Positions 58,099 through 62,471 of a stretch of DNA of 64,000 bases are shown piece after piece. Position 1 is the first letter of the stretch; every line of letters starts with the position of its first letter. The translations under genes were made by a program, and so were the position numbers. Source of the DNA: SAR86 cluster bacterium (GTDB lineage Bacteria; Pseudomonadota; Gammaproteobacteria; Magnimaribacterales; TMED112); the NCBI GenBank assembly GCA_016779525.1, contig JADHNL010000002.1:4437-68436 (forward strand), read 5' to 3'. The notes under the pieces were generated by a model, which searched no databases, had not been told where the DNA came from, and saw nothing but the letters and a program-made list of their open reading frames with translations.

Positions 58099-58888
58099 AG
58101 ATTTTTTAGCAAATCCACGAAGAGTTCGGCCTAAAACAATCTTTTATGGCAGCACAGGAGATGATATTCATAAAATTGTTTCAATCCTTGTGCTTAAACA
58201 CTTAAATCAAATATACAAAAAGGAAATTAAACTCACTCAAAGTTTGAACGATTTAGCGCTTCCTAATTTCTTCTTTTTAAAAAAAGAGGATGGGAAGTCA
58301 AATATCCCGATTGAGGAAATAAGAAAACCAAAAGAATTTCTTAACTTAAAAAGCACTTTCGGCAAAATGCTTTATATTCAAGGCGGACAAGATATTCGTG
58401 TCGATGGTTACAACGCTTTGTTGAAGACGGTTGAGGATTCAGATTCATCAACTTTTATCTGGATCTCCGCTGAAAATTTAAAATCAATTCCAGCTACTAT
58501 TTTAAGCAGATTTGATCAGGTAAAAATACCCTCTCCTAAAACAAGCAGCATCAAAGAATACTTTGAACAAAAAACAATAAAATTTGATGATAGAATGCTG
58601 ACTTTTTTAGCTCAAAATCCAAATGTAATGATGGTGGATGATTTTCACTTAGTGCTTAGAAGATTTGATGAGGTCTTGCAGTCAAAAGATATAGCTTCAA
58701 TTGAAAAATCTGAATTTAGACTATTCATTGACTACCTGATATTCAATAACAAGCAAGGGATACACTTAGACAACAAGCAAGCTTTAAAGAGGCTTAAGTT
58801 GTTAACAGAAGTAAAAAAATCTTTACTTTCAGCTCATAATCTTAGTCTTGATGTGATTCGGCTTAGAGTTACTTCTTGTCTCGGTTAG
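58082..58888 (+). CDS. holB: DNA polymerase III delta-prime subunit (short, divergent)
   Basis: 268 aa. YNALLKTVEDSDSSTFIWISAENLKSIPATILSRFDQVKIPSP aligns with E. coli ANALLKTLEEPPAETWFFLATREPERLLATLRSRCRLHYLAPP. tmk-holB synteny. Degenerate P-loop and no zinc module. Confidence 0.8.
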   Translation: MYQWNKDFLANPRRVRPKTIFYGSTGDDIHKIVSILVLKHLNQIYKKEIKLTQSLNDLALPNFFFLKKEDGKSNIPIEEIRKPKEFLNLKSTFGKMLYIQGGQDIRVDGYNALLKTVEDSDSSTFIWISAENLKSIPATILSRFDQVKIPSPKTSSIKEYFEQKTIKFDDRMLTFLAQNPNVMMVDDFHLVLRRFDEVLQSKDIASIEKSEFRLFIDYLIFNNKQGIHLDNKQALKRLKLLTEVKKSLLSAHNLSLDVIRLRVTSCLG

Positions 58889-60377
58889 GTCTTGGAAAAA
58901 AAGAGTTTTCTTGCTCAAATGCATAAGCAAAATTAATAATCTTTGCTTCTTCCCAAGCTGAGGCAAAAAATGATAGTCCAACTGGCAAGCCTTCAACGTA
59001 ATCAAGAGGAATTGTTATATGAGGGTAGCCGGCAACAGCAGATAAACCTCCATTCCCCCAAGAAAGCCCATTAAAGCCTCTAGAGTCGCCATTCTCATGA
59101 TCAGTTTTCCATGCTGGGTTTCTGGTTAGTCCTACCAGACCATCCAGGCTATCTCTCACTAACAAACCGTCTATTTGACTTTGAGCTCTAGATACAATTA
59201 ACTCAACGCCCTTTTGATACTTATCTTCATCTGTTGCTGACACGCTATCAAGAAAAATTTCATGGCCAAAGTGCTTTAAGACACTTTCAGAATTTTCTTC
59301 ATTAAAAGCAATTAAATCAGACAAGCTATTCATGCCCGATGCACTTGATTCTAGGTATTTATTAACTCCTTCCCTAAATTCATAAAGCAACACATAGTAT
59401 TCATTATCCCATTTGTAGTTGCTTTGGATATCAAAGTTAACTCTTAGCACTTCTGCGCCTAGTTTGCTTAGTATTGCTTCGGATTTTTCTAATAATACTT
59501 TTTCATAGTCAGAAACTTCTTCTGGAAAGATGAGGCCAATCCTTTTTCCAAGGAGCGATTGCTTACTCATGCTTAGCAGGGCTTCGAAATCATAGTTTTT
59601 TGGAATTTCTTTAGTAGCAGGGTCTTTAGGGTCTGTTCCAGATATGGCGTGAAGAACTGCAGCTGCATCACTGACACTTCTCGCCATTGGTCCGGCTGTA
59701 TCTTGCGTTTCAGAGATAGGAATAATTCCATCTCTACTTACTAAGCCAACTGTAGGCTTAATTCCAACAATGCCATTTATTGAGGCAGGACAGCTAATTG
59801 AACCATTTGTTTCAGTGCCTATTGCAACGGGAACAAGACCTTCAGCAACAACTGCTGCACTACCTGAACTTGATCCGCATGGGTTGAAGCTTAAGTCGTA
59901 AGGATTGTTAGTTTGCCCTCCATAACTTGACCACCCACTGGTTGAAGGGTTGCCCCTGAAGTTAGCCCACTCAGATAAATTTGCTTTACCAGCCAAGACA
60001 AAGCCCGAATTTTTTAGTAGTTTTACTATGTGTGCGTCATCTTTTGGGAAATTATCAAGCATTGCCAATGATCCTGCAGTATTTGCAAGACCTACCGAAT
60101 CAATATTGTCTTTAATTACGATTGGCACGCCTCGCCATGCCGACCTTCTGCTGTAAACGTAATTCTTATAAAGATCTTGATCAGAATAAAGGGCAATTAC
60201 AGCATTCACATCACCATCTGCTTCCTCTAAGTAACTTAGGTATTCTTTGTAAAAAGCTCTTTTGTTGTTTGAGCTATCAAGCAACTGTTTAAATTCATCC
60301 AGCGATAAGTCTTTAAAATTGTTTTCGCTGTATGCAAGGAAAGATATGAGGAAAAAAAAGATGGTTCTACTTAACAT
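58869..60377 (-). CDS. Secreted amidase-signature (AS) family amidase
   Basis: 502 aa. N-terminal signal peptide (MLSRTIFFFLISFLAYS), AS motif GSSSGSAAVVA, Ser-cisSer-Lys context (KDNID, TETNGSI). Confidence 0.88.
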   Translation of the reverse strand: MLSRTIFFFLISFLAYSENNFKDLSLDEFKQLLDSSNNKRAFYKEYLSYLEEADGDVNAVIALYSDQDLYKNYVYSRRSAWRGVPIVIKDNIDSVGLANTAGSLAMLDNFPKDDAHIVKLLKNSGFVLAGKANLSEWANFRGNPSTSGWSSYGGQTNNPYDLSFNPCGSSSGSAAVVAEGLVPVAIGTETNGSISCPASINGIVGIKPTVGLVSRDGIIPISETQDTAGPMARSVSDAAAVLHAISGTDPKDPATKEIPKNYDFEALLSMSKQSLLGKRIGLIFPEEVSDYEKVLLEKSEAILSKLGAEVLRVNFDIQSNYKWDNEYYVLLYEFREGVNKYLESSASGMNSLSDLIAFNEENSESVLKHFGHEIFLDSVSATDEDKYQKGVELIVSRAQSQIDGLLVRDSLDGLVGLTRNPAWKTDHENGDSRGFNGLSWGNGGLSAVAGYPHITIPLDYVEGLPVGLSFFASAWEEAKIINFAYAFEQENSFFPRPNRDKK

Positions 60378-60388
60378 AGAACCATCTT
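60351..60388 (-). terminator. Strong intrinsic terminator downstream of amtB, overlapping the amidase start codon
   Basis: The minus strand reads AAGAUGGUUCUA-UGUUAAG-UAGAACCAUCUU (12-bp perfect stem, 7-nt loop) followed by UUUUUUC. Confidence 0.75.
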
Positions 60389-60495
60389 ATAAAATTTATG
60401 GTAATTTTCTAGTACAAAGAATTAGAGAGAGCGCTTAAACTAAAATACAAAGGGCTATTAGGATTAAATCTAAACTCTCTCTCCAAACTCAATGA

Positions 60496-61743
60496 CTAAA
60501 ACTCTGGGTAGGCTTCAACACCTATTTCTTCAGCATCCAACCCTTTCTTTTGAATTTCATCAGAGGCTCTAACTGGAGCTACCAAATTTAGTAAAAATAG
60601 GAACGCATAGGTCAATACAAACCCCCAGAGGACAATTGAAACAACGCCATACAGCTGAGAACCAAATGTTGCTTCCGCGTTGGTAAATGGCACAACCATA
60701 ACACCAAATATTCCAGCTGCTCCATGGGCGGAAATAGCACCCACCGGGTCATCAACTTTAAAGAATTGTTCGAATGCAACCAATGCTCCATAACAAATTA
60801 GACCGCCAATAGCTCCAATTAGAGTAGCTTCATAACCACTTGGAGATAATGGATCTGCAGTTATTGAAACTAGTCCTGATATGGCACCATTTAATGCATA
60901 AATGATGTTGGTTTTTTTGAAGAACACTCTGGCAACCACTAAACATGAAATAACACCTCCTGCAGCAGCCATATTAGTATTTAGGAATACTTGAGCTACA
61001 GCATTAGCGTTTTCAACGTCTTGTATTGCAAGTTGTGAACCGCCATTAAAACCAAACCAACCCAACCATAGAACAAAAGTTCCCAATGCAGCAATTGGAA
61101 TATTTGCACCGTAAAGTTTATTTGTTTCAGCTACAGGAAAAAGCCCATAACGCTTACCTGACACTTTGCCATATTTACCGAGTCTTGGACCAATAAATAT
61201 TGCTGCAGCTAAGGCACATGCAGCTCCAATTAAATGGACTGTTCCTGAACCAGCAAAATCTGAGTAGCCATCTTGTTTTAAGAATCCGCCACCCCAATTC
61301 CAGAAACCTTGCACAGGGTAAATGAAAGCTGCTATAAAGACGACCAAAGCAAAAAATGGCCATTGGTTCATTCTCTCAGCAACAGCACCCGATACAATTG
61401 AGCAAGCTGTGGCAACAAAAACTACTTGAAAGAAAAAATCAGCAGATTCTGAGTAGCCATAACCATCAACGACTGTATCAGCAGTAGTGCTTCCAAAACT
61501 AAAATCGTAAGCTGGCACGATTGTTCCAACGGGAACGTCGCCTGGGTACATTACCATGTACCCACATAATAAATACATGAAGCAAGCAATTGAGTAAAGG
61601 CCGATATTTTTTGTAACTATTTCAGCCGTATTTTTTCTTCTGACAAGACCTGCCTCAAGCATGGTAAAGCCTGCTGCCATCCACATGACTAAAGCAGCAG
61701 TTATCAACATATATAACGTATTTAAAGCGTATTCGATTTCCAT
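60496..61743 (-). CDS. amtB: Ammonium transporter (Amt family)
   Basis: 415 aa with 11 TM-like segments. Motifs DFAGSGTVHLIGA, WLGWFGFNGGS, ISAHGAAGIFG. Confidence 0.96.
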   Translation of the reverse strand: MEIEYALNTLYMLITAALVMWMAAGFTMLEAGLVRRKNTAEIVTKNIGLYSIACFMYLLCGYMVMYPGDVPVGTIVPAYDFSFGSTTADTVVDGYGYSESADFFFQVVFVATACSIVSGAVAERMNQWPFFALVVFIAAFIYPVQGFWNWGGGFLKQDGYSDFAGSGTVHLIGAACALAAAIFIGPRLGKYGKVSGKRYGLFPVAETNKLYGANIPIAALGTFVLWLGWFGFNGGSQLAIQDVENANAVAQVFLNTNMAAAGGVISCLVVARVFFKKTNIIYALNGAISGLVSITADPLSPSGYEATLIGAIGGLICYGALVAFEQFFKVDDPVGAISAHGAAGIFGVMVVPFTNAEATFGSQLYGVVSIVLWGFVLTYAFLFLLNLVAPVRASDEIQKKGLDAEEIGVEAYPEF

Positions 61744-61752
61744 ATTAGCCCT

Positions 61753-62349
61753 TTAAAATGATGCTCCGACAGTAAAAAATAGCCCGTCCTCATCTTCTAG
61801 TCCTGATGCACTATCGGCCGTAAATGAGCTATAACCCAAAGACGCGTCATATTCACCTAAAGAAAATCCATAACCGACTAGAAAGTTAGATCCTGTGTCT
61901 TCGTAATCTCCATAAGAAAATGAGAAATCACCAAAACCATATGATATGTCGTAATAGTCACCAAATTCATCACCAAGGTAGTATGAGAAACCCACACCGG
62001 CATATGACAACGCTACGTAAATCTCTGAAAAATCGGCATCCGTTACCTCAGGGTAAGCATAATTGATGTAACCAACATCCCATCCAAGACCACCATCGGT
62101 TTCACCCGCGTAGCCTATATAGGTATCAAGTTCCAGACCTGCACCACCAAAAGCAACATTAGAACCCCAAGTACCAGCATAAAAGCCACCTTCAGAGCTA
62201 TAATCAAATCCACCACTGTATGCGGGAGCATCCATAGTTTGGGACATCCCTCGCCAGAAGTAATTTGATGAAAATGAAAAGTTTGAGGACACACCTGCAA
62301 ACACATTCAACGTTAGAAATATGGCTAAAGCCATCATTCCTTTTTTCAT
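61753..62349 (-). CDS. Small outer-membrane beta-barrel protein (TIGR02001/Gcw_chp-like) co-transcribed with amtB
   Basis: 198 aa. Signal peptide, SSNYFWRGMSQT and aromatic/Gly-rich alternating strands, terminal F. Only 9 nt upstream of amtB. Family assignment is from memory. Confidence 0.78.
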   Translation of the reverse strand: MKKGMMALAIFLTLNVFAGVSSNFSFSSNYFWRGMSQTMDAPAYSGGFDYSSEGGFYAGTWGSNVAFGGAGLELDTYIGYAGETDGGLGWDVGYINYAYPEVTDADFSEIYVALSYAGVGFSYYLGDEFGDYYDISYGFGDFSFSYGDYEDTGSNFLVGYGFSLGEYDASLGYSSFTADSASGLEDEDGLFFTVGASF

Positions 62350-62418: not shown

Positions 62419-62471
62419 GCCGCGTTCCTTCAGCTTTCGCTTACTTCCGTCCTCGAAGAGGATGAACGATT
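62419..62471 (-). ncRNA. glnA RNA motif (glutamine riboswitch) in the porin-amtB leader
   Basis: The minus strand reads AUCGUUCA-UCCUC-UUCG-GAGGA-CGGAAGUA-AGC-GAAA-GCU-GAAGGAACGCGG. This gives P1 CGUUC/GAACG, two GNRA/UNCG-capped stems, and the conserved ACGGAAGUA and GAAGGAACG junction strings of the glnA motif. Confidence 0.8.

Follow-up and report, generated by a model that had tools for sequence, protein, structure and literature searches.

The window analysed here is a 64,000-nt stretch of a SAR86 cluster bacterium genome (assembly GCA_016779525.1, contig JADHNL010000002.1, positions 4,437 to 68,436; all coordinates below are those of the window). It contains, on the minus strand, a glutamine riboswitch followed by genes for a putative porin, the ammonium transporter AmtB and a secreted amidase. 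The amtB-amidase junction carries a perfect hairpin, referred to here as hairpin 2, whose apex holds the amidase start codon, and three signals appear to overlap there on one 38-bp stretch. RNA polymerase arriving from the glutamine riboswitch/porin/amtB unit would produce a transcript that folds into hairpin 2 with its eight U residues and terminates, which would insulate the amidase from the upstream operon. On the DNA, the 5' arm would act as a sigma-70-type -10 hexamer, TAAGAT, located at -12 to -7 of the amidase ATG, and a second set of transcripts would start at or beside the A of this ATG, in the loop. A leaderless mRNA of this kind would lack the 5' arm and therefore could not form hairpin 2, would not terminate at the U-tract and would not have its start codon occluded, so that the ribosome would be offered an unstructured 5' AUG.

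Judged from sequence comparisons, the amidase is probably made from a leaderless mRNA starting inside hairpin 2, and the arrangement is then an overlap of signals and not a paradox. For the complete scheme, our favoured reading, in which hairpin 2 terminates the riboswitch-porin-amtB transcript and the amidase mRNA, starting in the loop without the 5' arm, escapes termination, we consider the case evenly balanced.

Structure and conservation of hairpin 2

Hairpin 2 is composed of the 5' arm AAGATGGTTCTA (60388-60377), the loop TGTTAAG (60376-60370) and the 3' arm TAGAACCATCTT (60369-60358) on the minus strand, followed by TTTTTT (60357-60352) and then C. The perfect 12-bp stem, 7-nt loop and U-tract described in the first-pass annotation were borne out by these coordinates, and RNAfold adds a U.G pair, which results in a 13-bp stem with a 5-nt loop. 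The amidase ATG is formed by the last base of the stem and the first bases of the loop, and both the A and the U of the AUG are paired in the RNAfold model. By itself, the hairpin folds with an energy of -16.9 kcal/mol, and its stem is AT-rich, with G-C pairs at only 4 of the 13 positions. The run of eight T residues also encodes the FFF of the signal peptide, as had been read from the sequence at the outset. The spacer between the amtB stop codon and the stem is structured, as first described, but its length is 107 nt and not 108 nt. The 161-nt segment comprising the amtB 3' region and hairpin 2 has a folding z-score of -6.1 when compared with shuffled sequences.

The host genome (G000) is that of a marine gammaproteobacterium, with a size of roughly 1 Mb and a G+C content of 36%. 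Four perfect hairpins of at least 12 bp were found in the 827-kb genome, hairpin 2 among them, compared with 0-1 in shuffled sequences. The region surrounding the amidase start (-20 to +25) folds with an energy of -17.4 kcal/mol, making it the most structured of the 710 open reading frame (ORF) starts of G000 obtained by crude ORF calling (mean -3.2, standard deviation 2.5, runner-up -12.4 kcal/mol). Approximately 25 canonical terminator-like sites are present in the genome; these consist of short GC-rich stems with T-runs and are usually located 17-25 nt past a stop codon. Hairpin 2, with its 13-bp stem and U8, ranks third by energy among them, and is the only one of the strong sites to cover a downstream start codon. 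It has a stable stem-loop, a U-tract directly 3' of the stem, and a co-directional upstream gene, amtB, to which it is tied in evolution (see below). The initial description of this hairpin as resembling an intrinsic terminator holds on all of these counts (stem, U8 and the link with amtB), and the terminator part of our proposal, taken alone, is likely to be correct. A bidirectional terminator was considered and rejected: the plus strand has no T-run, and there is no convergent gene at this site.

The ATG within the hairpin is the true start of the amidase gene, in agreement with the earlier assignment. An in-frame TAA (60389-60387) means that no start further upstream is possible, and the Met is conserved in the orthologues. 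Two candidates for assisted initiation were rejected, namely coupled translation from a small upstream ORF ending at this TAA (another in-frame stop lies 9 nt further up) and a weak Shine-Dalgarno (SD) sequence in TAAGATGGT (the genome shows no SD signal).

The encoded protein matches Pfam PF01425 (5e-82) over profile positions 5-444 of 445. The alignment with the peptide amidase Pam (PDB 1M21; 3e-112) begins at residue 16, which leaves the N-terminus over as a signal peptide; this peptide begins with K/R-(T/A/I)-I-F-F. The score against NCBIfam PRK08137 (494 bits) is below the 534-bit equivalog cut-off, although this is nonetheless the best family. Among 14 orthologues there is no variation in the KDNI motif, the GSSSGS stretch or S193, and dN/dS values of 0.05-0.12 were obtained for five species pairs, all of them hairpin-bearing. 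The amidase is under strong purifying selection and must therefore be expressed. At its 3' end, the gene overlaps tail to tail with the convergent holB gene (DNA polymerase III delta') by 20 bp (58869-58888).

A pattern search identified the hairpin 2 motif once per genome in 13 of the 30 species of the genus, always at the amtB-amidase junction. No true copy was found in 236 other genomes of the order, where there were just four two-mismatch matches without a hairpin. In a first set of 23 amidase loci of the genus, amtB is directly upstream in 12, of which 11 carry hairpin 2, compared with 0 of the 11 loci that have a different upstream neighbour. In a metagenome scan, distant amidase homologues from soil and marine sources dominated the matches, and one extra locus of the genus was added, in which hairpin 2 is absent.

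Divergence among the compared species is considerable (amidase identity down to 54%, amtB identity down to approximately 72%, dS 0.5-1.5). The 31-nt hairpin 2 is almost invariant across them, while the remaining spacer barely aligns. All 13 hairpin-bearing species have ATG as the amidase start and a U-rich tail after the hairpin, this tail being imperfect or interrupted in G008 and G001. Every substitution within the arms keeps the RNA pairing on the sense strand: A is replaced by G at two positions and C by U at one, all giving wobble pairs, and one pair varies as a series from U-A (most species) through U.G (G044) to C-G (G000, G009 and G042). Amidase codons 5 and 6 always end in C (ACC, GCC or ATC, followed by ATC); the genome-wide shares of these codons in their families are 15% for ATC, 18% for ACC and 14% for GCC. 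The pair-keeping changes and the fixed, rare C-ending codons argue for selection on the nucleotide sequence of the coding arm. Since hairpin 2 requires sense-strand RNA with both arms, this points to a transcript arriving from amtB.

Two loci depart from this pattern. In L004 of genome G004, a 77-amino-acid ORF is inserted between amtB and the amidase, and the stem of hairpin 2 has decayed (GGTTTT to AGTAAG, ATC to CTT), with unrelated sequence in the 30 nt upstream. The inserted ORF encodes a secreted protein with two EF-hand-like loops (DSNGDGKIS and DKDKDGFL) and carries its own 11-bp terminator-like hairpin. In L052 of genome G045, the amidase has been cleanly deleted downstream of amtB. 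Hairpin 2 survives at this locus as a 7-bp remnant (AAGATGGATT ... AAATCATCTT), which lacks both the ATG and the T-run and lies ∼65 nt away from where the convergent holB gene ends.

The -10-like hexamer and the origin of the amidase transcript

The block that is invariant among the 13 species begins at T60389 (-12), one base before the stem of hairpin 2, and includes the hexamer TAAGAT at -12 to -7 of the ATG. The same hexamer is kept at this position in G004 (6/6 bases), despite the lost stem. The initial argument had looked for a separate amidase promoter downstream of the hairpin, where there is little room. That it must lie there is not supported: a transcription start inside the hairpin is enough, and TAAGAT is a candidate for directing it. 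The first 45 nt of a leaderless amidase mRNA beginning at the ATG fold with an energy of 0.0 kcal/mol, compared with -17.4 kcal/mol for the start region with its leader. Joint maintenance of a -10 box, a stem and a reading frame would account for both the frozen sequence and the fixed start of the signal peptide.

A signal of this type is enriched in the lineage. In G000, TANNNT occurs at -12 in 7.2% of the 710 ORFs, compared with approximately 3.5% at other offsets. Perfect TATAAT hexamers were found seven times at -12, three to six times at each of the offsets -17 to -13, and never at -11 to -6 (background mean further upstream 0.8). The peak recurs in 400 kb of a distinct species, G008, where hexamers agreeing with TATAAT at no fewer than five of six positions were counted 12 times at -13 and 9 times at -12, against a background of 2.7 ± 1.7. 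In both genomes (for G008, C1:1-440000), the pile-up of -10-like hexamers at -17 to -12 of starts ends sharply at -11. From these offsets, and with no SD signal in G000, the lineage seems to use leaderless or very-short-leader mRNAs for roughly 5% of its genes. Zheng et al. (2011; PMC3160421) described a 'TA-like signal' ∼10 bp upstream of the start as characteristic of leaderless genes, and 375 leaderless genes were mapped in Caulobacter (PMC4117421). We found no report in the literature of leaderless genes in this marine group.

Several observations weigh against a leaderless start. There is neither a conserved -35 box nor a TGn extension at TAAGAT; the best -35 candidate is TAGAAA with a 16-nt spacer, and a consensus scan called no promoter here. 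Most of the -12 hexamer candidates in G000 likewise have weak -35 boxes, and chance would account for about half of the TANNNT hexamers at -12. It should be noted that TAAGAT opens with an in-frame TAA and that crude ORF calling enriches in-frame stops before starts, an artefact for which the TAT-initial and TATAAT counts control only in part. Within the stem, the invariance of AAGAT is also explained by pairing and coding, and the G004 case concerns one lineage. In Gammaproteobacteria, leaderless mRNAs are in general uncommon. Finally, amidase orthologues in other contexts give a mixed picture: G005, G016 and G019 have no -10 hexamer at -12, and the start in G011 is GTG.

Two further observations concern similar arrangements. 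A clade in which the amidase lies away from amtB (L005, L006, L027 and L075) has TATCAT at -12 to -7, a leaderless-like position; one of its members starts with GTG. In contig C8 of G000, outside the window (∼2631-2662), a further perfect 12-bp palindrome, again with a T-run, is located 12 nt past the stop codon of one gene and ends 2 nt before the ATG of the next, with TACAGT in its 3' arm at -11 to -6. This palindrome may be another overlap of a terminator with a leaderless promoter.

The most serious competitor of leaderless transcription is a leaky intra-operon terminator (attenuator), which we regard as possible but on balance unlikely. The amidase would then lack its own promoter, and its mRNA would come from the minority of polymerases that read through; the hairpin in this mRNA would also throttle translation, giving little amidase, in step with the riboswitch-controlled amtB operon. 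Such coupling would suit two co-directional and functionally linked genes, since the periplasmic amidase releases ammonia and AmtB imports it. Leakiness is also consistent with the low G-C content of the stem, its distance from the amtB stop codon (107 nt, against the usual 17-25 nt) and the interrupted U-tract of G008 and G001, and the lack of a good -35 box at TAAGAT is naturally accommodated. The difficulty lies in translation. In a genome with no SD signal, a stem of -17 kcal/mol in which both the A and the U of the start codon are paired should block initiation on the read-through mRNA almost completely, and yet the amidase is under strong purifying selection. Read-through also leaves unexplained the invariant T at -12, which is outside the stem, and the retention of TAAGAT in the stem-less G004, and no conserved antiterminator helix was found. 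Of the read-through or antitermination option proposed in the first-pass annotation, plain leaky read-through thus survives as a rival to the leaderless start, while its conditional form is undermined by the absence of a conserved alternative helix.

The sequence conservation of the arms, which differ from hairpin 1 (see below) in being conserved rather than covarying, could also be that of a protein-binding palindrome. This would be either a DNA operator for a dimeric repressor placed over the amidase promoter, or an RNA operator repressing translation, as for the MS2 coat protein. The start codon and the candidate transcription start do lie at the centre of the repeat. The G.U wobbles, however, keep the pairing only in sense-strand RNA and break the symmetry of the DNA, and the conserved U-tract does not suit an operator. 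An operator of the amidase would moreover be expected to travel with the gene, but the palindrome is lost in G004 though the amidase stays, and no candidate regulator is encoded alongside. We consider this explanation improbable.

Hairpin 1 and the upstream operon

The first-pass annotation also described a structured amtB 3' region containing a long pairing, and this structure is both real and conserved. The AGAGAGAG/CUCUCUCU pairing forms a long hairpin (hairpin 1, ∼60490-60419) of approximately -25 kcal/mol, in which purines dominate the 5' arm and pyrimidines the 3' arm. Of its 10 predicted pairs, 7 show two-sided compensatory changes between species. The motif GCCCUUUGU, considered as a conserved loop motif of hairpin 1, was rejected, being part of the stem in one clade. 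Hairpin 1 follows the amtB stop codon in nearly all species of the genus (orthologous positions in L053, L057, L061, L064, L065 and L069), and it stays behind amtB where the amidase is elsewhere; hairpin 1 therefore belongs to amtB. In cases where amtB has no downstream amidase, hairpin 1 or another hairpin with a U/C-rich tail is located right after the stop codon. Where amtB is linked to the amidase, no U-tail follows hairpin 1, which leaves hairpin 2 as the sole canonical terminator for amtB. Hairpin 1 may act as a 3' stabiliser or a processing site, or may be an old terminator.

The position of a conserved, covarying structure just upstream of hairpin 2 raises the idea of conditional antitermination, or of a riboswitch-like leader, in which hairpin 1 and the spacer would respond to a signal and thereby control the formation of hairpin 2. 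This is very unlikely. When the nascent RNA was folded without the 3' arm, the 5' arm found only weak partners, different in every species, and no conserved helix emerged; ACCAT, a candidate antiterminator in the spacer of G000, was rejected as it is not conserved. That hairpin 1 is an element of amtB, kept where the amidase is elsewhere, also argues against such a role. A search of Rfam at a permissive threshold found no family for the amtB 3' region, the matches being confined to chance-level miRNA hits on hairpin 1.

A small RNA of the Hfq type derived from the amtB 3' region, which had been suggested from the pairing, is unlikely, because neither G000 nor five near-complete genomes of the genus (93-97% complete) yielded a match for Hfq (PF17209). 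A stable 3' fragment that is independent of Hfq is possible. Rho is present in G000.

The least probable explanation, also among those initially offered, is an effectively silent or decaying amidase: its start region is the most strongly folded one of the genome and encloses the start codon, but the dN/dS of 0.05-0.12 and the signature residues invariant in 14 orthologues lead us to reject it.

The positions of the features discussed are given in Table 1.

Table 1. Features of the riboswitch-porin-amtB-amidase region, with positions in the window
Feature	Position	Strand	Basis or remarks
Glutamine riboswitch RF01739, operon leader	62419..62470	-	67 bits against a gathering score of 35
TorF/Gcw_chp family putative porin	61753..62349	-	Family match
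amtB, ammonium transporter	60496..61743	-	Pfam PF00909, 8e-87; stop codon TAG at 60498-60496
Hairpin 1, long stem of purine and pyrimidine arms immediately following the amtB stop codon, no U-tract	60419..60490	-	Folding, covariation
TAAGAT, candidate -10 hexamer at -12 to -7 of the amidase ATG	60384..60389	-	Invariant; T60389 lies outside the stem
Hairpin 2, candidate intrinsic terminator of the porin-amtB transcript	60358..60388	-	Perfect 12-13-bp stem with the amidase ATG at the apex
Amidase ATG, proposed transcription start of a leaderless mRNA	60375..60377	-	Sole possible start; Met conserved in orthologues
U-tract, run of 8 T	60352..60359	-	First two bases close the stem; encodes FFF of the signal peptide
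Amidase-signature enzyme with N-terminal signal peptide, closest to peptide amidase Pam	58869..60377	-	Pfam, PDB and NCBIfam matches

Relation to known systems

Precedents exist for each ingredient of the proposed arrangement, namely intrinsic terminators, partial intra-operon terminators, start codons enclosed in operator hairpins, and leaderless genes whose -10 box lies at -12. Hairpin 2 resembles canonical intrinsic terminators in its perfect stem-loop followed by eight U residues, its location past the stop codon of a gene on the same strand, and an energy within the range of the genome's own sites. It differs from them in its distance of 107 nt from the stop codon (17-25 nt being usual) and in its AT-rich 13-bp stem, where short GC-rich stems are usual. 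In addition, it contains the start codon of the next gene, and its sequence is frozen across species.

The amidase shares with leaderless genes, of which lambda cI transcribed from PRM is an example, the TAnnnT at -12 to -7 of the ATG, the lack of an SD sequence, the unstructured 5' end of the coding sequence, and the lineage-wide enrichment of the hexamer at this offset. It differs in that its -10 box doubles as the 5' arm of the terminator of the upstream gene, and the transcription start is in this case predicted from sequence.

The terminator of the E. coli rpsU-dnaG operon is a partial terminator inside an operon, which sets the unequal expression of the genes. Like terminators of this type, hairpin 2 carries a U-tract and separates two genes that run in the same direction and are linked in function. 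Unlike hairpin 2, however, these lie in spacers, ahead of an ordinary ribosome-binding site, and leave the start codon of the downstream gene outside the hairpin. The replicase operator hairpin of MS2 and Qbeta is a binding site for the coat protein, with no U-tract and no role in termination. As in hairpin 2, the downstream start codon lies within a small hairpin that blocks initiation, but for hairpin 2 no binding protein is indicated.

The closest precedent for the combination of terminator and promoter is the study of Bao & Forster (bioRxiv 10.64898/2026.02.12.705533), in which terminator sequences were found to have sigma-70 promoter activity that was context-dependent and was treated as unexpected. 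Those terminators are of the hairpin-less class II T7 type and were encountered by accident in constructs, whereas hairpin 2 is a natural hairpin terminator kept in 13 species, for which we infer promoter activity. Our literature searches did not turn up a start codon placed in a terminator loop, nor a natural, conserved hairpin terminator that supplies the next gene with its -10 box through the 5' arm and with its start codon through the loop. That the junction represents a natural, long-conserved three-way code, combining a terminator, a core promoter and a start codon with its signal peptide, in a lineage that uses leaderless mRNAs routinely, is a proposal that we advance tentatively, with slightly less confidence than the combined termination and leaderless-start scheme.

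Should read-through prove to be the source of amidase expression, the junction would be an ordinary intra-operon attenuator with an unusually placed hairpin. If the amidase is instead expressed from a leaderless mRNA, a streamlined genome of ∼1 Mb would have packed a terminator, a promoter and a start codon into 38 bp, and this packing of signals would dictate part of a protein, the K-T/A-I-F-F start of the signal peptide. The amidase would then be regulated separately from the adjacent glutamine-riboswitch operon, and a terminator hairpin over a start codon need not mean that a gene is silent or mis-called. The -10 signal at -12 would, in that case, provide a simple predictor of transcription starts for an uncultured and ecologically abundant marine group.

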